Positions 35,761 through 56,115 of a stretch of 64,000 nt of DNA are shown here, piece after piece. Source of the DNA: Squalus acanthias (lineage: Eukaryota). Every line of letters starts with the position of its first letter. Position 1 is the stretch's first letter. The position numbers and the translations under genes were made by a program. The DNA is taken from the NCBI GenBank assembly GCA_030390025.1, contig JASTWF010000033.1:5024001-5088000 (forward strand), given 5' to 3'. The notes under the pieces were generated by a model, which was not told the DNA's origin, did no database searches, and was given only the letters and a program-made list of their open reading frames with translations.

Positions 35761-36086
35761 CAACAATTAAATGTAGCCTCACACGGTAAAACGACGTGTT
35801 CCCGTTCAATATATGGATCATAGAATGAATTTTCATTTGTTTATTTAAATCCCATAAAATTAAATTTATTTCCAAAGAGTTGGAAACAGGAATATGATCC
35901 ATCTACATTTAGTCATCATTTTACGTGAAATAAATACTCGTAAAAGTATTGGAGTGGGAACTCAGTGGATAACAGCACCCCTGGCAATGTTTGTGGAATA
36001 TTTTCTTGCAGCCAAAGCGCACATTAACAACCTGGAAGTGTGTGGGACTGAATCCGCAGGGGGAAAAAAAAAACAGTTACAGACTT

Positions 36087-36160
36087 CGTCCCTGGGTGGA
36101 GTCGAACCACCAAACTTTCGAGTTAACAGCCGAACGCGCTAAACAACTGCGCCACAGCAA
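36087..36160 (-). pseudogene. tRNA-Asn(GTT) pseudogene
   Basis: Reverse complement CTGTGGCGCAGTTGTTTAGCGCGTTCGGCTGTTAACTCGAAAGTTTGGTGGTTCGACTCCACCCAGGGACG; 5' end mismatched, 1-nt insertion. Confidence 0.88.
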
Positions 36161-36684
36161 AAGATGCAAACCCCTTTTGCAACGCATCCCAAACCAGGGT
36201 GTCAGTGAGTTAAAGATTCAGATTGCTCCGATCAGGATGGAACTTGTCCACTATCAGTTTTACTTTTCAAAAATAAAGGGTGCGACATTGATTGTGTATA
36301 CCTGGCAACAGTCTGGTCTCGCTCACTGCTGACACATCCATATCACCGTCAACCAGCTTTCCCGCAACAGGCGCGGTCTCCCTTCGAGCCTTTCGGTGCC
36401 TTGTCTGTGAAGAAGTATTCTGATTGTCCAGATGCCGGTATTATGTTTTAATTCCTGATCTGCATTAACGAGAATCTTTTATATTGCTCTGATAAGTTAA
36501 CTTCCCCGCTAACATCAGAGTAAATGTTCCAGTATCTTAAACCAGGGAAAGGTGCATTGACCGCTTCTGGTCAGTCAGGCAATTCAGCCCTTCATTTTCC
36601 TCTCATTCCGTTTCCCAAAGCGTTTCCAAAGATTCACAAAACTGCTAACTGTGTTTCGTTTTTTGGTTCATTCTGATTTCCTGC

Positions 36685-36765
36685 TTCAGGCTGGTGGAGC
36701 GGTCTAAGGCGCTGGATTTAGATTATAGATTGCTCTGGCCGTGGGTTAGAATTCCACTTCTGCCA
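36685..36765 (+). pseudogene. tRNA-Leu(TAG) pseudogene
   Basis: GAGCGGTCTAAGGCGCTGGATTTAG...CGTGGGTTAGAATTCCAC..TGCCA; downstream flank resembles that of 32376-32458. Confidence 0.8.
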
Positions 36766-37697
36766 TACGGTTCATTTCAATTTTAGTGCAATTATATCTT
36801 GTGGAATTAGCTACAACTTCTTTTTCAGCCCAGTTTATTTGTCATTCGGTAAAGCGATACAAACTACATTTCCTTGCCTTCTGTAAAATGCCAGCTGTTT
36901 CAACAAAGCCAGCAGGAAATGACTAGCACTTTCTGTCAACATGTAGAACGAGACACTTTCAATGTTTACATGCCCACATTTAACGCAGCTCACAGTGTCA
37001 GAACAGTCAACCTTATCACTAGCCTTCCATGTATCTTGTTGAACTGCATCTCCCCAACAACCTTAGCTTATCACAGCACGGCTATCAATCAATTCATTGC
37101 CAGTGTGAAAAATGCACCATCTGAAACTTAGCAACGTGTGCAAGACTGGAATCAGAGAGTGTCTGGGCCGTGGGCAGTGATAACTTATACTGAGCATTAA
37201 GATATTCATTAGTCCTGAGCTCTTCCTGTATTGCTCAGTAGCCCACTGAGTGAGGAACTAAGAGACCACAGGCCGGGGATGGAGCCTGGGCATTTTCAGT
37301 TCTGTGTGGGGCTCAACAACTTACCTGCTGCTGAAGATTGAACTTGACATAATTTCAGCAGCTCGGGATCAGTGCGGCTTAGTTGGAGTTCAACCAGTCG
37401 CACCCTTCACAACCCATCAGTGCCGAGAAAACAACGGAGAATTTTATACATGTGTTGTGTTCTGTAACTTTATATGAACATTTCAGTTTATTTCACGCTG
37501 TGACCAACACTGTGAGGATCCCACTGGTGTATCATCTTCGTATCTTTATCAGCACTCCAGCTTTACATTAACACAACCTGAGCTCCGCGATCTGGTCGGG
37601 TCCCATGCTCTGAAGTGAGGAATGAGCGGGAGTGGCAATTCCACCCGGGGTTAGAAAATCCTCCAAAATCATGACACAATATTTAGTTTACTGCGCA

Positions 37698-37771
37698 GCC
37701 GCAATAGCTCAGTTGGGACAACGTTAGACTGACAGATCTAAAGGTCCTTGTTTAAATCCCAGGTTTTGGTT
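37698..37771 (+). pseudogene. tRNA-Phe(GAA) pseudogene
   Basis: GCCGCAATAGCTCAGTTGGGACAACGTTAGACTGACAGATCTAAAGGTCC; 1-nt insertion in the anticodon. Confidence 0.88.
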
Positions 37772-38177
37772 ACTTTGCGTCTCCTTCATTATAAGAGGAG
37801 AGAATCAGGAGAGATTTTCCGTTCCTGAACCCGCATCTCCGAATCGAATGGGTGTGAAACCGCATCTGATCCTCTGGATCTTGCTCCAGCCCCCCGCTGC
37901 GGGTGTGAAGCCGGCTCATTTTATACCGGGACAGTGTTTGATGGAGGTGATGTTCAGCGGTGGTGGAATAATAATTTTCAGAATAAAGTTTGGTAAATTA
38001 AAGAGCTCTTTTTTCTGTTACTTTCGATTTAAACTCTGCCCAGTTGTATATATGAACAGTTAACAATGTTTAAGCGATGTGCTGTGTTCAATATTTTTAC
38101 AGTAACTCTGTCACCCAGTGTGAGCCTGAATTACAATCCCCCAGCCTGGGCTCGAACTCATCCACTGGGCACTTTGT

Positions 38178-38240
38178 GGCCGGTTACCTCTGTTGATGCG
38201 AACGGGGTGATACTTCTACCAATGGTCGCGGGTTCGATCC
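38178..38240 (+). pseudogene. tRNA-Ile(AAT)-derived pseudogene, 3'-truncated
   Basis: GGCCGGTTA..TC.GTTG...CCAATGGTCGCGGGTTCGATCC, cut off by the 5S fragment. Confidence 0.7.
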
Positions 38241-38305
38241 TAAACAAGCCTGACTGTGTCTTAGTTTCCGAAATCGGACGTTTTCAGACGAGTATGGCCG
38301 TCGGC
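38241..38305 (-). pseudogene. 5S rRNA pseudogene, 5' part with internal deletion
   Basis: Reverse complement GCCGACGGCCATACTCGTCTGAAAACGTCCGATTTCGGAAACTAAG; upstream spacer shared with the other two 5S copies. Confidence 0.85.
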
Positions 38306-39349
38306 ATCCGCTATCTGACATTCTCTTTACTTAAAGGCACATAGGGCTGTCGTCCATTCTTTTTTCTTCATCTATGCGTTCATACAAGCATAAACACTCA
38401 ATTTCTATTGCTTTATTTTACACCCCCGCCCCCAAGTTTTCTTAGTTCACTTAGTCCCACACAAACAAACTAAAAGCCCAGCCCTTCATTGCCTTCTAAT
38501 AAGCTGCATAACTACCTTCCTTTCACCATTCACTCAATCACCCCCAAATTACCGACTCACTAATCACCCCCTCCACCCGACCGCAAATTCATTCGCTCAA
38601 ACAAATCACTCTCTTGAGCAAAAATGCTGCTTTTCATGTCTCAAAATACAGATAATCGGGCGCAGTCTTTTCTCGCAAGTTGTGTGACCAATTCGGCCTG
38701 GAGGGATTCCTGGATGTGGGCTTGTGTCAGCATACCACAACATGACAGCTGACCATGTGCTGCCTGATCATGTGACATCTGCTTACGACTTCTACAAATG
38801 TTATTCCATTGTAGCCAGGATTGTTCATAGAGTCATACAGCCATTCAGGCACAGAAGGAGGCCATTGGGCCCATCGAGCCCATGCCGGTTCTGTGTAGAG
38901 CAATCCAGTCAGTTCCATTCCCCCGCTTGTTCCTCGTGGCACTGCAAGTTTATTTCCTTCAAGTGCGCATCCAATTTCCTTTTGAAATGATTGATTTTCT
39001 CCGCTTCCACCACCCACGTCGGCAGCAAGTTCCTGGTCATTACCACTCGCTGCGTAATCAAGTTCTTTCTCACATCACCCCCGTTTCTCTTGCGCAAAAC
39101 CTTCAATCTGTTTCCCCTAGTAGTTGTACCATCAGCTAATGGGAACAGCCTTCCTCTGTCTACAATGAAGGGTAGGGTGTGTAGTATGTCTGTGTGGGAC
39201 TAAGTGCACTAAGAAGAGTTGGGGTCGGGGGAGTAAAATAAAGCAATAGAAATTGAATACTGTGTGCTTGTTTGAACGCATAAATGAAGAAAAAAGAATG
39301 GACGACAGTCCTATGTGCATTTAAGTAAAGAGAATGCCAGATAGCGGAT

Positions 39350-39472
39350 ACCTACGGCCATACTAGTCTGAAAACGCCAGATCTCGTCTTACCTCTGGAA
39401 GTCTAAGCAGAGTTCAGCCCTGGGTAGTACTCAGGTGGGAGATCGCCTGGTAATATCAGGTGAAGTAGACTT
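39350..39472 (+). pseudogene. 5S rRNA pseudogene (full length, degenerate)
   Basis: ACCTACGGCCATACTAGTCTGAAAACGCCAGATCTCGTC...TAGTACT...GGGAGATCGCCTGG...CAGGTG..GTAGACTT. Confidence 0.9.
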
Positions 39473-39799
39473 CTGCTGCCGCCACAGGCAGCTCACGATC
39501 TGCACACACACTGCTGTTAATGAATCAATAACCTTTTTTGTTGCTCACTCGCATTCCTTAGACCATTTCTTCGCAGCACATTCTCCTGGTGCTACACAAA
39601 CACAAGGGGCTCGAGACAGAGGGCTGGAAAAGCAGAAGAAGAAAATAAGATAGCCAAAAAAAACACTGACGGAGGGGCTCCCCGACACAGCAGTAGAGAG
39701 GAGAGACAAGGTGCATAGAAATCTAGGAGCGACAAACAGAAACAGATTAAATAATAATGTAGAAAGAGCAGCAGTTAAAATGACGAAAAAATCAAAGCC

Positions 39800-41372
39800 A
39801 ACTAGCATGCTGTTGGAATGCATGTGTGTTAATGCGAGGAGTGTTACAGATAAGATTCACGAGCCGCAGGTGCAAGATGCCACATAAGGTTATGAAATAG
39901 AGGATATAACGGAGACCTGGCTTAAAATGGGCATAATTGGATACTGTCTTGCATCTCAGGTTACAAGGGGAAGTTGGGGTGCAGAAAGCAGAAGGGTTTG
40001 CCTTAATCTTCCAATCTTCCCTAGATGCTGGGGAGGTGCCAGAGGATTGGAAAGTAGTAGATGTGACATCCTTGTTCAATATGTGGAGATGCCGGTGTTG
40101 GACTGGGGTGGACAAATCCTTGTTCAAGACAGGGTGTAAGGACAAACCTAGTAACTACAGGCCGGTCAGTTTAACATCAGTACTGGATAAGATTTTAGAA
40201 ACAATATTCAGGGAAAAATTAACAGGCATTTGGAGAGGTTTAAGTTAATTAAGGAGAGCCAGCACGAATTTGTAAAATACATATTGGGTTTGACTAATTT
40301 AATTGATTTTTTTGATGAATTAACAGAGAAGGTTGATATCGGGATTGTAGCGGATGTTGTCTATATGGATTTTAAGAAAGCGTTTGGGACAAAATACCAC
40401 ATAAAACGCTGGTTAACAAAATTGAGACTCAAGGAATAGGAGGGTCGGTGACAGATTGGATAAGAAATGGGCTTATGGACAGAAAACAGCGAGTCGAGGT
40501 AAATGGTTGTTTTTCAGACTGGAGGATTGTAGACAGTAGTGTTCTCCAAGTGTCAATGCTAGGGACCCTGCTTTTTTGAAAAATATAAATGAATTGGATA
40601 TTGGAACACAGAGTAATATTTGGAAATTTGCCGATGATACCAAACTTGGAGGTGTGGAGGATACCAATCGACTGCAAAAAGACATAGATAAAGTTAGCAG
40701 AATGGGCAGACAAGCGTCACATGGAATTTATTACAGAGAAGTATGAGGCGATGCATTTTGGCTGAAGGGATAGGGAGAGGCAATATAGACTGAATGGAAC
40801 ACTTCTAAAGAGTGTGCAGGGAGAGAGGAACCTCGTGGATCATGTGCTTAGATCTTTGAAGGTGGCAGGTCATATTGAGAGAGTAGTGATCAAAACACAT
40901 GGGATCTTGGGCTTCATAAATAGAGCTATTGAGTACAAAAGCAGGGAAGATATGCTGAACCATTATACAACTCTGGTTAGGCTACAACTAGAGCATTGCG
41001 TGCATTTCTGTTCACCCCACTTTAGGCAGGATGTGAAGGACCTTGAGAGGGTGCGGAGGAGATTCACAAGAATGTTTCCAGGGATGAGGGATTTTAGCTA
41101 CAATGCCAGGTTGGAGAAACTGGAGTTGTTCTCCTTGGAGCAAAGGAAATTGAGGGGAGGTTTGATGCAGGTGTACAAGATTATGACGGGTTTCGATAAG
41201 GTAGAAAGAGAAAGGCTGTTCCCATTAGCTGATGATACAAGGACTAGAGGACACAGACTTAAGGTTTTGGGCAAGAGATAAAGTGAGAATGTGAGGAAGA
41301 ACTTTATTATGCAGTGAGTGATAATGACCTGCAACTCGCTGCCGACTAGGGTGGTGGAAGCGGAGATGATCA
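39800..41372 (+). mobile_element. Decayed, internally deleted CR1 downstream of the 5S copy
   Basis: CVNARSV endonuclease start, then [37 protein letters not shown]. Confidence 0.85.
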
Positions 41373-43016
41373 AACATAGAAACATTGAAAAATAGAGCAG
41401 GAGTAGGCCCTTCGAGCCTGCTCCACCAATCAATATGATCATGGCTGATCCTCTATCTCAATATTCCCGCTCTCTCCCCATACTACATGATGCCTTTTGT
41501 GTCTAGAAATCTATTCTATCTCCTTCTTAAATATATTCAGTGACTTGGCCTTCACAGCCTTCTGTGGTAGAGAATTTCATAGGTTCACCATCCCCTGAGT
41601 GAAGAAATGTCTCCTCATCTCAGTCCCAAATGTACTACCCCGTATCCTGAGACTGTGACCCCTCGTTCTAGAACCCCCAGCCAGGGGAAACATCCTCCCT
41701 ACATCCAGTCTGTCTAGCCCTGTAAGAATTGTATACGTTTCAATGAGATCCCCTCTCATTCATCTAAACTCTAGTGAATACAGGCCTCGTCGATCTAATT
41801 TCTCCTCGTACGACAGTCCTGCCATTCCAGGAATCAGTCTGGTGAACCTTCGCTGCACTCCCTCTTTGGCAAGTATATCCTTTCTTAGGTAAGGGGACCA
41901 AAACTGCACACAGTACTCCAGGTGTATTCTCACCACGGCCCTGCACAACTGTAGTAAGACATATTTGCTCCTGTACTCAAATCCTCTTGCAATGAAGGCC
42001 AACATACCATTTGCCTTCCTAACTGCTTGCTGCACATGATTGTTTGCTTTCAGTGACTGGTGTACAAGGACATCCAGGTCCCTCTGTACATCAACATTTC
42101 ACAATCTTATCACCATTTAAATAATACTCTAGATTTCTGTATTTCCTACCGAAGTGGATAACTTCACATTTATCCACGTTATACTGCATCTGCCATGTAT
42201 TTGCCCACTCACCCAATTTGTCTAAATAGTCTTGAAGCCTCTTTGTATCCCCTCACTAATCACAATCCCACCTAGTTTCATGTCGTCAGCAAACTTGGAA
42301 ATATTACATTTGGTTCCCTCATCAAAATAATTGATATATATTGTGAATAGCTGGGGCCCAAGCACTGATCCTTGCGGTACCCTACTAGTTACCGCCTGCC
42401 ACCCCGAAAAATACACATTTATTCGTACTCTCTGTTTCCCGTCTGTTAACCAATTTTCAATACATGCCAGTATATTACTCCCAATCCCATGTGCTTTAAT
42501 TTTGCACACTAACCTCTTTTGTGGGACTTAATCAAACGCCTTCTGAAAATCCAAATACACCACATCCACTGGTTCGCCCTTATCTATTCTAAAAGTTACA
42601 TCCTCAAAAAACTCAAGTCGGTTTGTCAAACACGATTTCCCTTTCATAAATCCATGTTTATTTTTCTAATCCCGTTGATATTTTCTAAGTGTCCTGTTAT
42701 CTCTTCTTTTATAGTAGACATTATAGCACTTTCCCTACTACTGATGTGAGGCTAACCGGTCTGTAGTACCCTGTTTTCTCTCTCCCACCTTTTTAAATTG
42801 TGGTGTTACATTTGCCACTCTCCAAACTGCAGGAAATGTTCCATAATCTATAGAAATTTGGAAGATGATAACCAATGCATCCACTCCTTCCATGTCTACC
42901 TCTTCCAGTACTCTAGGATGCATATTATCAGGCCCTGGGGATTTATCAGCTTTCAGTCCCATTAATTTCTCCAGCACTTTTTTTTTACTAATAAAAATTT
43001 CCTTTAATTCCTCAAT
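41373..43016 (-). mobile_element. 5'-truncated CR1
   Basis: ORFs 42738-43070, 42222-42509, 41760-42035, 41577-41759; tail at 41373-41395. Confidence 0.92.
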
Positions 43017-43676
43017 AATTTCAAAAGGATATTGGATGGACACTTGAGGGAAATGAACTTGCAGGGTCACGGGAATAGAGCGGGGGAATGGGACTGATTC
43101 GATTTCTCCACTGGCCTCCTTCTGTGCTGTAATGCCTGAAAGACTCTATAAACAACCCTGGCTGCAATGCAATAACATTTGTAGAAGTTGTGTGGTTACA
43201 TGTCACTTGATCAGGCAGCACATGGTCAGATGTCATGTTGTGGGATGGTGACACGACCATACATCCAGGAATCCCTCCATGCAGAGTTGGCAACACGACT
43301 TGCGAGAAAAGACTGCGGCCCGATTGTTTCTATTTTGAGGCCTGAGGAAGCAGCATTTTTGCACAAGTGAGTGATTTGGCTCATGGAGTGAATTTGCGGT
43401 GGGGTGGAGGGGGGTGATTCGTGAGTCGGTAATTTGGGTGTGAGTGAGTAAATGGTGAAAGGGAGGTAGTTTTGCAGCTTAATAGAAGACAATGAATGTT
43501 AAGTCTTGTAGTTTGTTTGTGTGGGAGTAGGAGCACCATAAGAGTTGGGGGGCGGGGGAGTAAAATAAAGCAATATAAATTGTGTTCTGTATGCTTGTAT
43601 GAACCCATAGACGAAGAAAAAAAGAATGGACGACAGCCCTATGTGCATTTAAGTAAAGTAAAGCCAGACATCCGAT

Positions 43677-43797
43677 GCCTACGGCCATACTAGTCTGAAA
43701 ACTCCCGATCTTCTCTGATTTCAGAAACTAAGCAGAGTCAGGCCTGGTTAGTTACTTGTTTGGGAGACCGCCTGGCAATGTCAAGTGCAGTATGCTT
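43677..43797 (+). pseudogene. 5S rRNA pseudogene/variant with TTTT terminator
   Basis: GCCTACGGCCATACTAGTCTGAAAAC...AACTAAGCAGAGTCAGGCCTGGTTAGTTACTTG..TGGGAGACCGCCTGG...GCTTTT; AT-rich TTTAAGTAAAG near -30. Confidence 0.9.
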
Positions 43798-45308
43798 TTG
43801 CTGCCGCCACAGGCTGCTCACGGTTCTGCACACGCACTGCTGTTAACCCTTCGATTACATTTTTGCTGCTCTCTATCGCTTTCCTTTGACCATATCTTCG
43901 CTGCACATTCTCCTGCTGCTACACAAACACAAGGGGGTCGAGACAGAGGGCTGGAAAAGCAGAAGAAGAAAATAAGATAGCCTAAAAACACACACTGCGG
44001 AGGGGCTCCCCGACACAGAAATTCAGATGAGAGACAAGGTGCATAGAAAATTAGCAGAGACAAACCGAAACAGAACAAAGAATAATGTAGAAACCGCAGC
44101 AGTTAAAGTGAGGAAAACAGCAAAGCCAACTAGCATGCTTTTGCATTGCATGTGTGTTAATGCGAGGAGTGTTACGAATAAGATTGACGAGTCGCAGGCG
44201 CAAGATGCCACATAAGGTTATGAAATAGAGGCTATAACGGAGACCTGGCTTAAAAATGGGCACAATTGGAAACTGTTTTTCATTTCAGGTTACTAAGGGA
44301 ATTTGGGGTGGAGATAGCGGAAGGGCTTGCCTTAAGCTTCCAATCTTCCCGAGATGCGGGGGAGGTGCCAGAGAATTGGAAAGTGGTAAATGTGTCATCC
44401 TTTTACAAAAAAGTGTGTGCGGACAATCCTAGTAACTACAGGCCGGTCAGTTTATCATCGGTGATGTGGAAGGTTATAGAAACAAAAATCAGGGGGAAAT
44501 TAACCGGCACTTGGAGAGGTTGAAGTTAGTTAAGTAGAGCCAGCACGGATTTGTAAACGGCAGATTGTGTTTGACTAATCTAATTTAATTTATTGATGAA
44601 GTAACAGAGAAGGTTGATGTAGGGAATGTAGCGGATGTTGTGTATATGGATTTTAAGAAGCTGCGGTTGCTTTCCTCACAGGTTTAAGAGGACATTTAAT
44701 CGAGGTTTTCAAATTTACAAGGGGCATTGATAGAGGAAATAAGGAGCAACCGTCTCCAGTGACAGTAAGATCGGTAACCAATGGACACCGATTGAAGATA
44801 ACCGACAAAAGAACTAGAGGGGAGATGAGGAGAATTTTCTTACACAGCAAAGGCTCAGGCCTAACCAATATCTTAATGCTCAGGATAAGTTATCACTGCC
44901 CAGGCACTCTCTCATTCCAGTTTTGCACACGTTGCTAAGTTTCAAATGTCGTATTTTTGACACTGGCAATGAATTAATTGATAGCTGTGCTGTGATAAGC
45001 TACTGTTGTTAGAGAGATGCAGTTCAAGAAGATACATGGAAGGCGAATGATAAGCGGAACTGTTCTGAAACTGTGAGCTGCAGTTAAATGTGGGCATGTA
45101 AACATTTAAAGTGTTTCATTCCAAATGTCATTTCCTGCTGACATGAGGCATTTCACAGAAGGCCAGGAAGAGTATTTTGTATCGCTGTACCGAATGATGC
45201 GCTGCCGAATGTTGAGGCAGCAACGGTGTGGAAAGTTAGATCAGGAGCGAGCATAGCTTCGCGCGGTGCTCTGATTGGTGGCATTTCAAACAACCCCAAA
45301 ACAGACTT

Positions 45309-45374
45309 TTCCCTGAAAGGGAATCGACCCCGGCCCGCGAAAGAGCCGAATCCTAACCACCAGATCAGCAGGGA
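45309..45374 (-). pseudogene. tRNA-Glu(TTC) pseudogene with deletion
   Basis: Reverse complement TCCCTGCTGATCTGGTGGTTAGGATTCGGCTCTTTCGCGGGCCGGGGTCGATTCCC. Confidence 0.85.
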
Positions 45375-45957
45375 AGCTGCAGCAAGCTTCCTGCCAGCAA
45401 GCAGAGCAACGCAGTCCTTCCGCCTTGCTGCTTTGTAATTCAGATCGCCTTCACGCCAGGCAAATTTTTCGTACAAAATGACATGTTCTAGAAACCAAAG
45501 CACCAAGTGCGGGCAGGCATCCATTTGAAATCTATTTCCTTCTCTGCTTTTCTCAGAGACACAGAGAGACAGACAATCAGAGAGAAGCTGTCGGGGAATT
45601 GAACACTCACCACTATAATATCAAGGACATTGTAGAGGAAATGGTTATGCAGTGCATGAGACAAAGACTCAAACACACACACTTGTGTGCGCGCTCTTTG
45701 TGTGTGTATGTCCCACACTCCCGCTTTTTCTGTGAATCCCTGTTAATCTCATGTTCTCTTTCACTCGTCCGTGCAGCACACAAAAGGGAGAGGCTAAGCA
45801 CTATACTAACGAGGAACAGGTGCAGGAAGTTGTTATACAGTTATTTTTATGCCGGTATATCTTTTCAAATTATTTTAGTTGATTATTTTCAATTCATCTT
45901 TTCCAACGAGCATTTTAAGGAGCTGCTCATAGGATTAAAATTGGGGATTTAAAAAAA

Positions 45958-46030
45958 TCCCCCTGTCGGGGAACTGAAGCCCGGTCTCCCGCGTGACATG
46001 CGGGGATACTCACCAATATACTAACAAGGA
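45958..46030 (-). pseudogene. tRNA-Asp(GTC) probable pseudogene followed by a T-run
   Basis: Reverse complement TCCTTGTTAGTATATTGGTGAGTATCCCCGCATGTCACGCGGGAGACCGGGCTTCAGTTCCCCGACA; B-box altered. Confidence 0.88.
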
Positions 46031-47243
46031 ACTGGCAGATGGCGGGTCTGTTAGAGCAAGAATCGACCTGTGAACAGAGTGAGAAAGATGCAAGAGACAG
46101 ACATAAGAATACAAACAGAAGAAATAGAAGCAGGGGTAGACAATTCGGCCCCTCGAGCATGCTCCGCCATTCAATAACTTCATGTCTGATCAGATCTTAG
46201 CCACACTACAATGCCACTTTCCCGCCCGCTCCCCATAACACTTGACTCCCCTGTAGCGCAAATATACATATGGAATATATTCAATGTCTCCACCCCCACT
46301 CCTCTCTGGGGTCGAGAATTCCAAACATTCAAGACACTCTAAGAGAATAAATTCCTCCTCATCTCCGTTTTAAATGGACGAACCCTTATCCTGAAACAGT
46401 GCCCCCTAGTTCTAGATTCCCCAACAGGGGAAACATCCTCCCTGCATCTACCCTGTCAAGCCCCCTCAGAATCTAATACAGAGAGAGAGAGAATCAGGGA
46501 CAAAGAGAGACACACACAGAGCGAGAGCCTCGGTTTGACGTCTCACAGATTGGTCATCATGGATGAGGGACTTCAGTTATGTTGAGAGAAAGGCGAAGCT
46601 GCGATTGCTTTCCTCAGAAATTTAAGAGGAAATTTAATAGAGGTTTTCAAAATTACAAGGGGTTTCGATAGAGTAAATAAGGAGAAACCATTTCCAGGGG
46701 GGTCGGTAACCAGAGGTCACCGATTGAAGATAATCAGCAAAATACCCAGAGGGGAGTAGAAGAGAATTTTCTTACGCAGCAAGGGCTCAGGCCTAATGAA
46801 TATCTTAATGCTCAGGGTAAGTTATCACTGCCCAGGCACTCTCTCATTCCAGTTTTTCACACGTTGCTAAGTTTCAAATGTTATATTTTTGAAACTGGCA
46901 ATGAATTGATTGATAGCCTTGCTGTGATAAGCTAAGGTTGTAAGGGAGATTCAGTTCAAGAAGATACATGGAAGGCTAAAGATAAGCGTGACTGTTCTGA
47001 AACTTTGAGTTGCAGTTAAATGTAGGCATGTAAACATTTAAAGTGTTTCGTTCCAAATGTCATTTCCTGCTGACATGAGGCATTTCACAGAAGTCCAGGA
47101 AGTGCATTTTGTATCACTGTACCGAATGATGCGCTGCCGACTGTCGAGGCAGCAACGGTTTGGAAAGTTAGATCAGGAGCGAGCATTGCTTCGCGCGCGG
47201 GTGCTTTGATTGGTGGCATTTCAAACAACCCCAAAACAGACTT

Positions 47244-47316
47244 TTCCCTGACCGGGAATACGAACCCGGGCCGCAGCGGTGAAAGAGCCGAATCCTAACC
47301 GCTAGATAACCAGGGA
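47244..47316 (-). pseudogene. tRNA-Glu(TTC), best-preserved tRNA copy (1-nt T-loop insertion, D-stem change)
   Basis: Reverse complement TCCCTGGTTATCTAGCGGTTAGGATTCGGCTCTTTCACCGCTGCGGCCCGGGTTCGTATTCCCGGTCAGGGAA. Confidence 0.88.
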
Positions 47317-47941
47317 ATCTGCAGCAAGCTTCCTGCCAGCAAGCAGAGCAACTCAGTCCTTACTCCTTGCTGCTTTGAAATTGAGATCGCTTTCACGCCA
47401 CGCAAATTTTTCGTACAAAATGACATGTTCTAGAAACCACAGCACCAAGTGCGGTCAGGCATCCATTTGAAATCTATTTCCTTCTCTGCTTTTCTCAGAG
47501 ACACACAGAGACAGACAGTCCGAGAGAAGCTGTCGGGGAATTGAATACTCATCACTATAATATCAAGGGCATTGTAGAGGAAATGGTTATGCAGTGCATG
47601 AGACAAAGGCTCAAACACAAACACGTGTCTGTGCTCTCTTTGTGTGTAGATGTCTCAGATATACATCTGAGTTTCATAGATTCATGGAGGCTGGCAGCAC
47701 AGTGGGAGGCCTATCCCTGTTATCTCATTTTCTCTGTCCTCTGTCCCTCCTCAGTGCCCCACACAAAAGGGAGAGGGAAGCAGAGCACTATACTAACGAT
47801 GAACTGGTGCAGGAAGTTGTTATACAGTTCTTCATATGCCAGTATATTTTTAATTATTTTAGATCATTTTTTGCTGTTCAACTTTTCCAAGGAGCAATTT
47901 AAGGAGCCGCCCAAAAGGTTAAAGATTGGGGATGTTAAAAA

Positions 47942-48015
47942 TCCTCCGCGTGAGGGAATTGAATCCCTGCTTCCCGCTTGAGAGGCGGGGATACTCACGA
48001 CTATACTAACGAGGA
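47942..48015 (-). pseudogene. tRNA-Asp-derived pseudogene with anticodon reading CTC
   Basis: Reverse complement TCCTCGTTAGTATAGTCGTGAGTATCCCCGCCTCTCAAGCGGGAAGCAGGGATTCAATTCCC. Confidence 0.82.
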
Positions 48016-48325
48016 ACAGAACACTGCAGAATCTGTCAGAGCAAGAATCGACCTTGAACAGAGTGACAAAGAAGAGAAGGGACAGACATAACAATAAGAA
48101 CAGAAGTACTGGGAGCAGGAGTGGGCCATTCGGCCCCTCGAGCCTGCTCCGCCATTCAATAAGATCATGGCTGATCTGAACTTGGCCTCAACTCCACCTT
48201 CCTGTCCGCTCCCCATAACCCTTGACTCCCCTGTAGCTCAAATATATGTCCATCTCCGCCTTGAATATATTCAATGACTCCGCCTCCACAGCTCTCTGGG
48301 GTAGAGAATTCCAAAGATTCACGAC

Positions 48326-48867
48326 TGATGTGGAGTATTTATTCAACACTCGACACAAGTCTGTCAGGTACAAATCAAAAGTCTTTATTACACCGGTGGG
48401 GAGACAATCTCTTACTGGCGCACCAGCAGACTTCTGCAAATTGATACAGTAAGCGTTACATATTTATGCTTTCAAAAGTCGTGGTAACCTCGTACATAAT
48501 CCGTTACAGTGCTTTAATTGGCTTAAAGCCCGCGTGCACATTTGCTGAGTGGCTAATTCCCTATCTCGCGTCACATGACTGTTTGCCTATATTTATTGTC
48601 ACATGATCTTTATGATCTCACCTGTTGTTATAAGTTTGCGACCTTCAGTAAAACCACATGTCTGCATTTCTGTCTTGCTGTGCACCGTGTGGTTTTACTT
48701 ATCTCTAGTTTCCATAGTTTGTGGTTGGTGCTTCTGAGCTGTTTACATCTAATTTTGCAAAAGCTTCGAGACCTCTGGTCAACATGTCTGACCTGTTTTC
48801 GCTGGTCTCGTGTGCAAGCTGCATTGTTAACCCCTTAATTCCTGAAGGGCGCCGCTGCTCCACTTCA
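48326..48867 (-). repeat. 3' LTR, preceded by polypurine tract AAAAGGGGGGAC (48868-48879)
   Basis: TGATGTGG...CCACTTCA termini; direct repeat of 55314-55862; AATAAA on the minus strand. Confidence 0.93.
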
Positions 48868-48927
48868 GTCCCCCCTTTTGGTCCTTGGCAAAACTTCCCA
48901 AGATGACCAATTACTGCTACTACTGCC

Positions 48928-50583
48928 TTAGGCATCCCGCCCCGCTTGCAGTGGCCAGCTGCTAGGTTGTGAGCACCTAGTGCGTTTAGAGCTAAATAAT
49001 TCCTTCGTCTTGCACACGTTTGAGCAGCTTACTCTGTTCCTTAACTTCGCCTTTGCCCTGGTTTTGTTTCTACGTTTCGACCAAGCAGCACAAGTCATTC
49101 TAAGCCAACCTAATGTTAATATTAATTGTAGCGCTGCCAGTACATGAGAGATGATGCGGATCCAAGGGTGGATATCTACCTTCAAGCCCCAGTTCCAGGC
49201 TGTTTCATACCACGGGATCTTACGGAGCTCGGTTTCGATCTGCTTGTCAAGTTAACTCTTGTTTTAGGAGATGGGACCATTTTATGTTCTCGCGTGGACG
49301 GTGCCGAAGCTTCTTCAGATCTTCTGGGAGATGCGGGGTATTCCTCGTATAGCCCCAGGCCGCTCTTAACTGGTAGGCTGGGGGTGAAGCAGAATTTAGG
49401 GTTCGTGATATTACATGTCAGGCCACCATAATCGTACATCCGTTGGTTTGTCGTCACGCAGTACTCGTCCTTTCCCCGGTAGGCAGCGTGGGTCGGTTCA
49501 GATTCCGCTGGGCTTATTTCCAGCACACATCCCACAGTCTGATTGAACCCGCACCCATCCTTACTACCTTGCCCCAGCGGGTGTGAGCAGATCGTGAGGC
49601 TTCCTTCCCTGCGGCACCCAATCAATGAGACCCTTCTCATGGTTCCGTTTCTTTTGATCGTGTATTGATCCATTGGGTAATACCGCAGGTAATCCCTTCC
49701 CCTGATCAGTCCTATGTTCTCCACCTCGGACTGCGGTATGGTTTTGCATCTCCAGTCATTACCGGGATCATTAGCACCAAACCTATCAGCGAGGTGTGAG
49801 ACTCAGTGCATCCACCCGGCACAGGGTAGACCCTTGTCATGCCCTTTAATGTACAGCCATCCAGTGATGCTGGGTGCTGTGCCAACTGCAGTAGGTGGGT
49901 ACTATTGATCCAATCGGGGGCCCTGCCTGTCTGCATCTGGTCCAGGTTGTGTCGGACTTGTCCTATCATCCATCCCCCATATGCTGCCCCAAGTCTACTC
50001 CCGTCCGGACGTCCCCCGTGTGCCTCTGGAGCAAAATCCGCACAGTCTCTTTAAGACTCTCGGAGCTTGCTTTCACGGGTTGGATATTCAGGGCATTTAT
50101 AAGGGACGTGCCGGTATTTACGCCAGTCAACACGTCATTGACTAAACCTTGCTTATGTTGGAGGAACCCTGTGTGTCGAGGCACCGCATATAGTTAACGC
50201 TCGGCCACATGTTTCTATAGGCATGTAGTATCTGTGGCATCCCTGGTAGATACCTGAACTTAATCCACATACATCTCTGATGTGGCCGCCCATACCCTCT
50301 CACTACCACATTCAATACACAAGGTCCTATTGTACTTTAACTCAACGCCCAATATCGTGGGTTGGGTTCCCTTACACCCACAAAATGTTCGGCCCGTTCC
50401 GGGAATTGGTGCCCTTCTGCCGGAATATACCCGTCAGATATACTCTCATCTGACGAGGAACTGTCGGTAATTCTGATCTCCCTGGTGCTCTGTATGTTCG
50501 CGATTTCTCAGAACGTCTCCTGTTCCTACGGCGTCTAGTAGTGTCCCCAGTACTGTCAGGATCGTGGTGTATAGAGGCAACAT
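48928..50583 (-). pseudogene. env: env pseudogene (signal peptide, early cleavage site and fusion peptide, Cys-rich ectodomain, TM)
   Basis: MLPLYTTILTVLGTLL at 50583; QHKQ|GLVNDVLTGVNTGTSLINALNI at ~50160; Cys-rich ORF 49182-49724; WNWGLKVDIHPWIRIISHVLAALQLILTLGW TM region. Confidence 0.8.
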
Positions 50584-50970: not shown

Positions 50971-51396
50971 TAAACATAGAAACTAGGAGCAGGAGCAGGC
51001 CATTCGAGCCTGCTCCACCATTCAATACGATCATGGCTGATCATCCAAATGCAGTACCCTGTCCCTGCTTTCTCACACAGAATCCCCATCGAGCGTGCAC
51101 CAACACATATCCCACCCTATCCCCGTAACCCCACGTATTTAATTCCCCCTAACATATCCCATCCTATCCCCGTAACCCCACATATTTAATCCCCCCCTAA
51201 CACTAAGGGTCAATTTATCATAGCCAAATCAACCTAACCCGCACATTTTTGGACTGTGGGAGGAAACCGGAGCACCCGGAGGAAACCCACGTAGACACGG
51301 GGAGAATGTGCAAACTCCACACAGACAGTCGCCCGAGGCCAGATTCGAACCCGGGTCCCTGGCGCTGTGAGGCACCAGTGCTAACCACTATGCCAC
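50971..51396 (-). mobile_element. tRNA-headed HE1/V-SINE-like SINE with CR1-type 3' tail, flanked by CGTAAT
   Basis: Reverse complement GGTGGCATAGTGGTTAGCACTGG..GACCCGGGTTCGAAT..TGTGTGGAGTTTGCACATTCTCCCCGTG..GGGTTTCCTCCGGGTGCTCCGGTTTCCTCCCAC. Confidence 0.88.
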
Positions 51397-51484
51397 CGTA
51401 ATCCTTTTAGTAGTATACTCAATTCCATTACATACCGTCGGATTGGTCCCTTAGTGGGCCAAGATCTGATCCTCCCGTTACTAT

Positions 51485-52559
51485 TCATTCCGGTAATTTC
51501 ACAGCTCGCCCTGTCATCAGCTCATAGGGGGTTAGCCCCGTAGTCCCGTTAGGGGTTGCACGCAACCTCATGAGGATGGTGGACAGCAATTCCGACCAGG
51601 ATTGACCTGTCTCCTGTATAGCTTTGGCCAATGATATTTTCAACGTACTATTCATCCTCTCTACCATTCCCGAACTCTGGGGGTGGGAGGGGATGTGGAA
51701 CGTCTGTTTAATACCCATCATTGTACACAATTCTTTGATTACATTTCCGGTAAAGTCTGTCCCTTGATCCGAGTCAATTTGTGCAGGGATTCCCCAACGG
51801 GGAATCACATCGTCTTCCAATATTTTTGGCACAGTGATGGCGGTGAAATTGCCGGTAGCAAATGTTTCCACCCACCGTGTGAACTGAACAATCATCACTG
51901 GACATTATTTCTTCCCCCGAGAGCTGAGTAGTTGCCCAGTAAAATCGATCTGTAAATTCTCCCACGGGCCCCAAGGACGTGGTTGATGCGACAGTCGTAT
52001 CTTCACTGCTTTCCCCGGATTATGCTGGGCACATATCACACATCGGTGACAGTACTCGGCTATCCACCGGCCACCACGAGGCCCGGACAAAACTTGTGGT
52101 AACGGCGGTTCTTCCCCGATGATCGACTCCGTGGTGTAGCTCTATTAGCATAAGTCGTATGCATTCGGGGGCTATTACATGGCCGTCCTTTCGCCATACA
52201 GAGTTCGGACCCTGGGTCCCGCCCTTCTCTTTCCACTCTTTCTTCTCCCTATGGTTGGCATCGGCTTGCAATTTCGCAACGTCTATACTATCTTCTCCGA
52301 GGGTCAAATCTCCCACGGCCTCATCCATGGAAGTCTGGGTCTCCGCCGCACCACGTGCGGGGATGTCTGCTGCCTCATTTCCCTTCAGCACCTCGTTTTC
52401 CATCTTCTGGTGAGCCTTTAGTTTGATGACTGCTGCTTGGGCAGGTTTACTAGCAGCATCCAATAGCAGCGTAATTCGGCCTTCATGTTTGATAGCCTCC
52501 CCTCCTGAGGTGACAAATCCTCGTCTGCCCCAGGCGGTCATGTGATCGTGTACTCCCAA
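51485..52559 (-). pseudogene. pol: pol remnant: RNase H C-terminus + integrase (frameshifted)
   Basis: KLKAH..GNEAAD (RNase H); HHGVDH/CHRCVIC zinc finger; LQIDF, IDSDQGTDF, HPQSSGMVERMN (DDE core). Confidence 0.92.
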
Positions 52560-54082
52560 AAATTGGTAACGGGTTGCTCAACGCCGTTTGTACTACCTGT
52601 TTAAAATCATTATAATCTGTTGTTCGATCGGCCAGCGTGGCTCCCAGTTCCGGGACACAGGTCTGGTTCTTTATGTCATCCGCCAATGTGTTCCAGATGT
52701 CCCGGGGGCACTTGGCCCGGACGAGTTGGTGAACATCGCGTTCGAACATATTGGCCCAGAAATTGATCCGGCTGCGCGAGAGTACGCACAGTGTACACTC
52801 ACGCAGCCAGACTTCAATTGCCGGTTTTCAGCATGCACTGCGCATGCACTGAAAACCGGCAATTGATCTTTCGAAAAGGGGGCGGGTCCTCAGTGCACCG
52901 CGTGCGCGCTACAGGCTGCGCGCACGCAGTGCACTTCATCGCTTGCGCACGCAGGTAAGTATTGAAGAATCTGGAAAAGAAAAAAGGAAGCGCAGGAGAC
53001 TCTTTTAACCAGGTAAGTACATAATTAAGTAGTATTTAGAATTTTTTTTTACAGGTAAATCTTTAGTAGCGACTTTAAAGACAGGTAAGTTTATTTTTAT
53101 AACATTTTAAAAGATTTAAAATTTTTTCAAAAATTTATTTTTTTGTTTAAAAAGGTTAATTTATTTAATTACACTTATTTTAATTATGTGATGGGTTTTT
53201 TTTTAATTTAATGGAGGTTTAGCTCTTCTTTTGGGGGCTTGTTGTATTCCTAGTTTTCACAGCAGTTCAATGGCCGCTGTGAATTCTATGAATGAGAGCT
53301 TGGTGTGCTGCCATTGGCTGTAACTCAGTCACGTGATCCCACAGTACGCTCGAACTAACTTCGCACTGTGGGATCACGATGCACTCGCAGCTGATGGCTG
53401 GAACATGAAGTTCCAGCGAGCTGGGACTGAAAAAGCCAACGCGCAGTGAGACATCGCGGGAAGGGCTTACCCTCGCACGAACCCTCACACTGCAATTTCT
53501 GGGCCATTATGTATGTCGTACATTTCTTCTAACGTTCGCCAAAAGTCGGTATTGCCGTGTCTGGGATTCAATGAGGGCAAGTCTTTCAAAATGGATTGTT
53601 TCTCGCCCGGGATGAATGCCTGATACGACAATAACCCCCCCGGGGTGATATCTCCCTGGGAGTTCGGAGGCCGACTTCGGGCCTCAAGTGGGGCCGCAAA
53701 CACAGCAGCCGACTCTAATTCTGGAGCCGTCACCATTCCATATGGTGGCGAGTCGTCTCCGTTATCGGTATCATGTCCGGCAGACCAGGTACCGGCCCAA
53801 ACCTACTAGTCTGTTGCCGTTCATTTTGATGGAATAGTTTGAGCTCCTACAATTTTGAATGCATTTTCTTCATTAAATCAACGATATTGCCAAGTTATCA
53901 AGAGTCCTGCCTTGTCACACCTTTCCTTTGATTGCGTCTGCCAACAAACCTTCTGTTTGGCGGGATCCACAGATGGGTCCCACCCATCCTTTTTCATTTT
54001 AATAATTATTTTTTATTTTTCTCCGCGAAAAACTTAGTTCGAGACCCTTCTGGTCCCACTTTTCTTCCATAAAATTAGCCAT
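52560..54082 (-). pseudogene. gag: gag remnant interrupted by a MITE
   Basis: ATG at 54082 after the leader; ORFs 53485-53736 and 52483-52749 join in frame (EEMYDIHN-MFERDVHQLV) once the MITE and one TSD are removed; position between PBS and pol. Confidence 0.72.
52753..53505. mobile_element. MITE (same family as 17599-18360), TSD ATT
   Basis: Perfect TIR GGCCCAGAAATTG / CAATTTCTGGGCC; ATT at 52750-52752 and 53506-53508. Confidence 0.9.
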
Positions 54083-54170
54083 ATCCCCACTATGGTATTA
54101 CCTTTTAAATACCCACAGTCCCACTGAGGTATTATCATTTAAATAAATATAGATTATTTTAGTCCCCAAT

Positions 54171-54991
54171 ATGGATAAATGCGAGGTTATCTACTTTGGT
54201 GGCAAAACAGGAAGACAGATTATTATCTGAACGGCAATAGATTGGGAAAAGGGGAAGTGCAACGAGACCTGGGAGTCCTTGTGCACCAGTCGCTGAAGGT
54301 AAGCATGCAGGTGCAGCTGGCAGTTAAGAAGGCAAATGGTATGTTGGCCTTTATAGCGCGAGGATTCGAGTACAGGAGCAAGGATGTCTTGCTGCAGTTG
54401 TACAGGGCCTTGGTGAGATCACACCTTGAGTATTGTGTGCAGTTTTGATCGCTTTAGCTGAGGAAGGATGTTCTTGCCATGGAGGGAGTGCAGCGAAGAT
54501 TCACCAGACTGATAACTGGGATGGCAGGAAGGATGTGTGAAGAGAGATTGGGGTCGATTAGGCTTATATTCGCTAGTTTTTAGAAGAATGAGAGGGGATC
54601 TCATTGAAACTTATAAAATTCTAACAGGACTAGACAGACTAGATCCAGGAAGGATGTTCCCGATGGCGGTGGAGTCCAGAACCAACGATCACAGTCTAAG
54701 GATAAGGGGTAAGCCATTTAAGACTGAGATGAGGAGGAATTTATTCACCCGGTGTGTGGTGAACCTGTGGAATTCTCTACCACAGAAGGCAGTTGAGGCC
54801 AATTAATTTAATATATTCAAGAAGGAGTTAGATATATTTCTTAATGCTAAAGGGATCAAGGGATATGGGGAGAAATCAGGTACAGGGTACTGAATTTGGA
54901 TGATCAGCCATGATCTCATTAAATGGCGGAACAGGCTCGAGGGGCCGAATGGCCTACTCCTGCTCCCATCTTCTATGTTTCTATGTTTCTA
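54171..54991 (+). mobile_element. CR1 3' fragment inserted in the proviral leader
   Basis: ORFs 54179-54448 and 54537-54806; (TTCTATGT)n tail. Confidence 0.93.
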
Positions 54992-55293: not shown

Positions 55294-55311
55294 ATCCTGC
55301 TGACTACGCCA
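55294..55311 (-). promoter_or_regulatory. Primer binding site, tRNA-Ser
   Basis: TGGCGTAGTCAGCAGGAT, 2 nt inside the 5' LTR boundary; complementary to the tRNA-Ser 3' end ATCCTGCCGACTACG-CCA with one mismatch. Confidence 0.88.
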
Positions 55312-55313
55312 AT

Positions 55314-55862
55314 TGAAGTGGAATATTTATTCAACACTCGACACAAGTCTGCCAGGTACAAATCAAAAGTCTTTATTACACCGGTGGGGAGACAATCTCT
55401 TACTGGCGCACCAGCAGACTTCTCCGAATTGATACAGTAAGCGTTACATATTTATGCTTTCAAAAGTCGTGGTAACCTCTTGCATAATCCGTTGCACTAT
55501 TTTAACTGGCCTAAGGCCCGTCTGCACAGTTGCTGATTGGCTAATTCCCTATCTCGCGTCACACAGCCTTCCGCCTATACTTTATTGTCACGTGACCTTT
55601 ATGATTTCATCTGTTGTTATGTTTTGTAATCTTTAGTATAACCACATGTCTGCATTTCTGTCTTGCTGTGCCCCGTGTGGTTTTAATTATCTCTAGGTTC
55701 CATGGTTTGTGATTGGTGCTTCTGAGCTAATTTAATCTAATCAGGCAAAAGCATCGAGACCAATTGGTCAGCATGTCTGAACTGTCTCCGCCGGTCTCTG
55801 TCTGGTGTGCAAGCTGCATTGTTAACCCCTTAATTTCTGAAGGGCGCCGATGCCCAACTTCA
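55314..55862 (-). repeat. 5' LTR
   Basis: TGAAGTGG...CAACTTCA termini; direct repeat of 48326-48867. Confidence 0.93.
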
Positions 55863-56115
55863 CACCCACAGTGCCGTGAACTTGGCTCTGGCTGCATTCC
55901 CCAGATGAACCATCAGTTTCACCGTTACCCAACACAGAAAAACAGTTGTTGAGTGAGATGCACTCTGGGGCTTTTCTGACTACCTGCCTGCCCAACTTCT
56001 TCTGACTGGTGGTCACACATTCCCTCTCTGACTGCACTTTTTTAAGCTGCGCGGAGACCACGTCTGAAAACGTGCAATCCACATAACTCTCAGCCTCGCG
56101 GATACACCGCACTGT
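55863..56115 (-). mobile_element. CR1 ORF1 fragment
   Basis: IREAESYVD..RQVVRKAPECISLNNCFSVL..GSSGECSQSQVHG, similar to 16790-16930. Confidence 0.8.

Follow-up and report, generated by a model that had tools for sequence, protein, structure and literature searches.

The provirus and its surroundings

The window, that is the whole stretch of 64,000 nucleotides of Squalus acanthias DNA which we analysed, carries on its minus strand a provirus of a multi-copy endogenous retrovirus (ERV) family. Protease, reverse transcriptase (RT) and tether are missing; env is present but broken. The 5' LTR (55314..55862, minus strand, termini TGAAGT...ACTTCA) and the 3' LTR (48326..48867, minus strand) differ by a K2P distance of 0.12 over 541 columns. 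An 18 nt primer-binding site (55294..55311, minus strand) is complementary to the 3' end of tRNA-Ser(AGA), and a polypurine tract lies at 48869..48879 of the same strand. The primer site has 77 matches in the host genome against 0 for the control, and tRNA-Ser AGA was called at five of six loci. Priming by tRNA-Ser, proposed in an earlier note on this DNA, is thus borne out by the host's own tRNA.

No target-site duplication was found at the LTR flanks (55863-55880 and 48310-48325), and each flank derives from a different LINE part. The mismatch suggests that two proviruses recombined or that flanking DNA was deleted. For these reasons the LTR divergence of 0.12 may not date a single insertion; it would translate into about 27 My at a rate of 2.2e-9, or into 275 My at 2.2e-10, the rate assumed in PMC4422223 (cited papers are represented throughout by the portions of their text that were available).

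The interior is interrupted by three later insertions. One of them, a LINE fragment (54170..54990, ends approximate), sits in the leader and the start of gag and is missing from sister copy L167. The gag remnant is split in two. Its first part (53506..54111, minus strand) matches the sister Gag L039 with an E of 5e-10. It is separated from the second (52560..52752, minus strand) by another insertion, a MITE (52753..53505) which has a 3-bp duplication (ATT) along with its terminal inverted repeats and is missing from the duplicates L046 and L140. The MITE shows 74% similarity to DNA flanking a transposase-like, presumably Harbinger-like ORF in L214 (1267-3814). The second part of gag is fused directly to mid-RNase H, and L167, L171, L172 and L140 are collinear across the same gap; the further window-type copies L214-L216 gave no match to RT either. 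The pol remnant (51397..52577, minus strand) comprises the C-terminal half of RNase H, a zinc finger and the integrase (IN) core with an ORF at 51488-51904 (Pfam rve, E 9.8e-9; RNase_H, E 0.019). The third insertion, a SINE (50971..51396) presumably of an HE1-like family, interrupts the integrase tail and is missing from the duplicates L138, L140 and L177.

Around the 12 closest env matches the flanking DNA is shared as well, at 95-99%, so that these are segmental duplicates of one insertion. Beside the provirus, window positions 36086-48016 hold a decayed cluster of tRNA (Asp, Glu) and 5S rRNA sequences in repeats of roughly 2 kb and 4.3 kb; the segment which contains this cluster was duplicated at least 12 times.

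The envelope gene and its predicted fold

The env pseudogene (48928..50583, minus strand) is of the class Ib, F-like type and is marred by deletions, frame changes and stops. It opens with a signal-peptide-like N-terminus (50520..50583, minus strand; ATG at 50583; hydropathy 1.88 for residues 6-16). Exactly 145 codons downstream of this ATG stands QHKQ|GLVNDVLTGVNTGTSLINALNI, a decayed furin-type cleavage site (50149..50160, minus strand). The adjoining segment (50083..50148, minus strand) aligns with the post-cleavage part of the lokiretrovirus and snakehead retrovirus (SnRV) Envs; judged by its sequence it comprises a putative fusion peptide and the start of heptad repeat A. The Cys-rich β-domain ectodomain, equivalent to F domains I and II (49340..49985, minus strand), is distributed over two frames and has about 94% DNA identity to sister copy L040; eight Cys columns are kept in all eight aligned members of the env family. 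A transmembrane segment (49108..49164, minus strand) is followed by a basic cytoplasmic tail. The gene has deletions of 124 nt (first heptad region) and 71 nt (close to the membrane-proximal region), and it can be read only across small indels and stop codons, using all three frames. A CX6CC motif is absent from the three minus frames of env, in a scan which was positive for eight of eight gamma-, delta- and type-D control Envs. No immunosuppressive domain was seen by eye or matched in Pfam; the pattern used for it missed five of five gamma controls and is hence uninformative.

In the genome, the best 150 of 6,549 env candidates were scored, using a query whose first ~19 residues are out of frame. 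The copies fall into a near (82-99% amino acid identity) and a far subfamily (~54%). The cleavage site was surveyed at 30 loci, 13 of which belong to one segmental-duplication group. R-x-K-R occupies the cleavage position in 11 of the 13 readable copies among the 17 dispersed loci, the other two ending in a stop; in the duplication group it occurs in none of the 12 readable copies (13 loci). QHKQ was therefore correctly read by the earlier note as a former furin site. In the family, the putative fusion peptide and the heptad repeats come after a furin site, and it is this site which has decayed in the window copy.

The situation is different for the N-terminal subunit. Relative to the natural copy L164, a deletion of 514 nt, near 50176, directly precedes the cleavage site in the window. 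In L164 the N-terminal subunit has 323 codons and contains the F2-equivalent core, a segment present at four of the 30 loci, L164's own included. The 145-codon in-frame spacing in the window arose by chance from several indels. The short N-terminal subunit claimed in the earlier note thus had to be given up; the rest of the layout drawn there, i.e., a signal-like start, QHKQ at codon 145, a Cys-rich ectodomain, a TM and the absence of CX6CC, stood. An alternative would be a minimal F protein without a receptor module, whose N-terminal subunit is short by nature in the manner of paramyxoviruses. Some facts are on its side: 26 of 30 loci have no match to the F2-core segment, and the subfamily of L032, L132 and L134 has only ~65 residues ahead of the core. 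Yet the missing piece in the window is the F2 core, a part required by the fold, and the 323-codon form L164 has an N-terminal module which aligns to an intact homologue from Mustelus, P0005, from residue 39 onward (29% identity). We consider a naturally short subunit very improbable, and for the window subfamily we reject it, given the deleted core and the long form in L164. Across the family, the modules ahead of the F core vary from ~65 to 330 residues (L031/L033, L032/L132/L134, L133, L135, L164), which suggests swappable receptor modules or deletions.

Pfam contains no meaningful env match to the window env and its sister copies, Fusion_gly included, and a single-sequence search of the PDB with P0005 returned nothing. 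An AlphaFold model of P0005, which is ~45% identical to the sister copies, has a pLDDT of 64 and a pTM of 0.46; a model of sister copy L040 has a pLDDT of 60. Both are of middling confidence, with TM-scores of 0.2-0.3 by query and high rmsd in the comparisons. At this level, Foldseek against the PDB retrieved hPIV3 F as the best match of P0005 (E 1e-10), together with RSV, henipavirus and NDV F. With VIA the top seven rows were F or foamy chains (NDV F: Z 10.4, rmsd 18.0, 367 aligned). In BFVD the Envs of WEHV1/WDSV matched with E 4e-12 and 4e-11, along with lispivirus glycoproteins and baculovirus F. For L040, the leading Foldseek match was foamy Env (E 2.4e-9), with hMPV F next; VIA was weak, the best Z of 7.5 standing among unrelated helical rows. 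ESM Atlas neighbours had Fusion_gly in 85% and 21% of their members, plus Baculo_F, a result of low recognition value. The N-terminal module was modelled with a pLDDT below 50 and found no usable match in the ESM Atlas. Together, the Foldseek matches of both models, the VIA rows of P0005 and the Atlas neighbours bear out an F-like fusogen rather than the gamma-type SU-TM arrangement, as the earlier note had it. The env family is predicted to adopt the class Ib domain I/II/III fold of paramyxo/pneumovirus F and foamy Env; trimer formation and membrane-fusion activity would be predicted from membership of this class.

Homologues of this env occur in four shark and three frog genera, and nine of ten entries in one homologue list are named as shark proteins, the tenth having no name, which points to a cartilaginous fish as host. 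The frog representatives are from Pelodytes (P0060), Mantella (P0064) and Xenopus tropicalis (P0094); the Mantella protein belongs to a 16-member cluster, with 677 aa in 12 of the 15 members listed. Using hhalign, the family profile matched lokiretrovirus Env at 97.6% (E 3.5e-12; 363 columns, 19% identity) and SnRV Env at 79% (E 1.6e-5), the latter with cleavage sites in register. A family HMM scored two lokiretrovirus Envs at 50 and 46 bits, WDSV at 19.5, SnRV at 13.2 and nine foamy Envs at -7 to 17.2 bits; gamma, delta and beta Envs reached at most 3.4 and 205 shuffled or reversed controls at most 1.4 bits. The homology to lokiretrovirus Env, which the earlier note had suggested, is confirmed by the hhalign result and by the top HMM rank. 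The top PDB match by sequence is foamy Env (E 0.0026). An Env tree from 16 post-cleavage stretches did not resolve the deep branches.

The backbone is very probably not that of a lokiretrovirus

The window has no RT. Placement by RT was taken from copies with the same env and LTRs but a sister pol, whose IN is 65-69% identical. Trees were calculated from subsets (57, 32 and 27 rows) of 106 RT stretches, or from 20 Pol stretches, after redundant and short ones were dropped. The labels gamma, delta, beta, foamy and epsilon of reference contigs are our presumptive assignments from gene layout. The lokiretrovirus references are metagenome contigs which closely resemble the Loki RTs in the supplement of Wang & Han. 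The viral contig L051, found with the sister RT, has an RT matching the SnRV sequence printed in the same supplement.

The RT trees recovered the published topology with lokiretroviruses outside, and placed the family inside canonical retroviruses (99/97) and outside the foamy clade. The RT+tether tree again put it inside canonical retroviruses (100/98), as sister to SnRV at 86/91. This sister position had a support of 80 in a quick RT tree and collapses in careful RT-only trees. Holding the family together with lokiretroviruses was rejected (p-AU 0.034 for RT alone, 0.0002 for RT+tether). An RNase H tree which included the window half grouped it with SnRV at 87/90, away from lokiretroviruses plus foamy viruses; the window half and the family sit with SnRV, gamma and epsilon at 96/95. 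The best outside match of Gag is SnRV for L039 (E 1e-10) and L130 (8e-7), with lokiretroviruses at best at 0.39; for Gag of L127, WDSV (2e-5) is about equal to SnRV (5e-5). The window IN falls inside the family clade (95/94). In one tree this IN clade joined lokiretroviruses at 85/79, a position lost once a coelacanth sequence was added; IN did not group with SnRV, a constraint which was not rejected (p-AU 0.073). As a side observation, a metagenome retroelement Pol (L054) with an apparent tether and second RNase H branched outside both lokiretroviruses and retroviruses and is possibly Odin-like.

A true chondrichthyan lokiretrovirus, as suspected in the earlier note, would fit the F-like Env with its homology to loki Env, the weak grouping of IN and the presence of a tether plus RNase H, and the window copy lacks an RT of its own. 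However, tether plus second RNase H, seen in L043 and L039, are common to all retroviruses and hence not diagnostic. The AU tests speak against a union with lokiretroviruses, as does the window RNase H half with its gamma/epsilon/SnRV character. The family RT has the motifs PQG and LLQYVDD as in SnRV, versus PFG and SxWP in the Loki RTs of the supplement. No loki-like RT above 41% identity was present among the best 150 of 14,701 candidates in the genome, and in the available part of Table S2 of Wang & Han none of six chondrichthyan genomes is starred. Thus, lokiretrovirus identity is largely refuted by the AU rejections, the RNase H half and the RT motifs, and we consider it very improbable. 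RT, RNase H and Gag of the family belong with canonical retroviruses next to SnRV.

The likeness to SnRV and its clade Huo extends from RT, RNase H and Gag to a homologous Env core with aligned cleavage site and to an in-frame gag-stop-pol in shark sister copies. There are also differences: RT identity is only 38-43% and support is moderate, the shark element has a shorter Env and a tRNA-Ser primer, and no accessory ORFs were seen. SnRV itself uses tRNA-Arg as primer. SnRV-like Pol has been known in cartilaginous fish as clade Huo (PMC6001957) and as CmiERV lineage I of the elephant shark (PMC4422223); the available text of either paper does not describe the clade Huo Env as F-like.

With a probability of about 75%, we conclude that the window contains a defective provirus of a multi-copy, likely SnRV-related ERV family whose broken env is likely derived from a class Ib fusogen with an F/foamy-like predicted fold. 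The element is most likely an SnRV-related ERV and not a lokiretrovirus. In the ancestral Env, the signal peptide would have routed the protein into the secretory pathway. By analogy to class Ib fusogens (PMC11468914), furin would cut at R-x-K-R, so that the C-terminal subunit begins with a free fusion peptide, and the heptad repeats would refold into a six-helix bundle and bring about membrane fusion. The ~240-residue module ahead of the F2-equivalent core is a putative receptor binder, in a layout reminiscent of coronavirus spikes. The family may have spread while env was useful, as purifying selection indicates. In ten near-subfamily pairs dN/dS is 0.23-0.52 and in one far pair 0.78, in copies selected for long ORFs; between env subfamilies dN is ~0.4 and dS is saturated. 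These values suggest that env was under purifying selection during the spread. Deletion derivatives such as the window copy, without RT and F2 core, probably spread by copying in trans; segmental duplication then multiplied the window copy itself.

Exchange and origin of the envelope

Within this Pol clade env is not a constant. At least three pol sublineages are associated with F-type envs. L131, a member of the clade, has a gamma-type env with CX6CC, which the family HMM scores at 8.0 bits, in the membrane-proximal part only. The env of L130 looks gamma-like by eye, and L127-L129 lack an env ORF. L130 and L131 are young proviruses with identical LTR stretches. The env-less family of L127-L129 is very young, with ~40 loci of equal RT score among the matches listed, and a 1187-aa pol frame in many loci; in L128 the two LTRs are 100% identical. 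A second family of shark ERVs (L221-L226) possesses a more distant, P0047-type F-like env; its RT, usable at four of six loci, forms a clade of its own among canonical retroviruses and is by score closest to coelacanth sequences.

Class III or SnRV-like Pol together with gamma-type Env has been reported, i.e., in XtERV-S (PMC8278194) and in SnRV-related ERVs (10.1101/2021.11.23.469661), the latter with the very combination seen in the sisters L130 and L131. By its description XtERV-S resembles the shark element in its class III-type backbone and a tRNA-Ser(AGA/TGA) primer site; it differs in an ERV-L-related Pol with dUTPase. The Envs of both groups have an immunosuppressive domain and a gamma-type TM, as opposed to the class Ib env of the window.

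F-like Envs are known from lokiretroviruses (lokiortervirus; PMC7947760, PMC9040795) and from foamy viruses, whose Env is a class Ib fusogen alongside paramyxo/pneumovirus F (PMC11468914). With the loki Env, the shark family shares signal peptide, RXKR, fusion peptide, coiled coil and TM, all at the family level and broken in the window. It differs by its long N-terminal module before the F2 core, which loki Env does not have, by more ectodomain cysteines and by its non-loki RT, RNase H and Gag. The likeness to foamy Env and F lies in the predicted fold and a weak sequence match to the foamy TM subunit; the foamy Env, however, has its extra module inserted between the subunits and a leader peptide which the shark Env lacks, its own extra module being N-terminal, and the shark RT is outside the foamy clade. 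Walleye WDSV/WEHV1 Env, similar by structural match and, for WDSV, by HMM score, is much longer and comes with a class I epsilon Pol. The epsilon Env was left unclassified as neither gamma- nor beta-type (10.1101/2021.11.05.467493, 10.1101/2024.07.05.601823). In the literature searched, we found neither a class Ib Env on an SnRV-type backbone nor an Env described as F-like for shark, epsilon or SnRV-like ERVs; the available text of PMC12583693, PMC11521997, PMC12440569, PMC10536682, PMC13709493 and 10.1101/2023.10.26.564294 describes no such case.

The combination of an F-like env with the canonical-retrovirus polymerase of its relatives implies that retroviral envelopes with this type of fusogen are likely both old and widely distributed. 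Since SnRV, walleye epsilonretrovirus, foamy viruses, lokiretroviruses and the second shark family share the fold, the class Ib Env may be ancestral. A paramyxovirus-F-like class Ib fusogen would then have been the Env of the ancestor of all retroviruses and lokiretroviruses, kept in foamy, SnRV-like and epsilon viruses and in at least two shark lineages; gamma-type Env would be a later replacement in some lineages, sisters in the same genome included. We give this proposal an even chance. A lateral capture of the F-like env by an SnRV-type backbone, with a lokiretrovirus or an RNA virus bearing F as donor and without ancestry to canonical retroviruses, appears possible but rather doubtful. 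Among named sequences loki Env gives by far the best match (46-50 bits versus 20 or less), IN joined lokiretroviruses in one tree at 85/79, env exchange is evident within this Pol clade and it is documented in anamniote ERVs (10.1101/2021.11.23.469661). On the other hand, in the multiple alignment identity to loki Env is 13-19% and does not exceed that to WDSV, SnRV or foamy Env, and the genome search revealed no loki-like RT above 41% identity among its best 150 candidates. Further, SnRV, WDSV, foamy viruses and the second shark Pol clade share the fold, so that several captures would be needed.

The copy in the window is no more than a dead remnant with deletions. Published work, as far as it was available, treats the F-like Env as peculiar to lokiretroviruses or foamy viruses. 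Wang & Han (PMC9040795) favoured independent Env origins in lokiretroviruses and canonical retroviruses, with no detectable Env similarity, and Fernandez et al. (PMC11468914) regard the F-like fold as setting foamy viruses apart from orthoretroviruses. An ancestral class Ib Env, if true, would overturn the preferred model of an independent gain of Env by lokiretroviruses and canonical retroviruses. The shark and frog Env family is a sequence bridge: a single profile finds the Envs of lokiretroviruses, walleye epsilonretrovirus, foamy viruses and SnRV, which makes the origin of the retroviral Env testable by phylogeny. The unclassified Envs of epsilonretroviruses and SnRV thereby acquire a predicted fold. 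Finally, a natural system for studying the exchange of envelopes is offered by a single genome in which members of one Pol clade have a class Ib env, a class Ia env or none.
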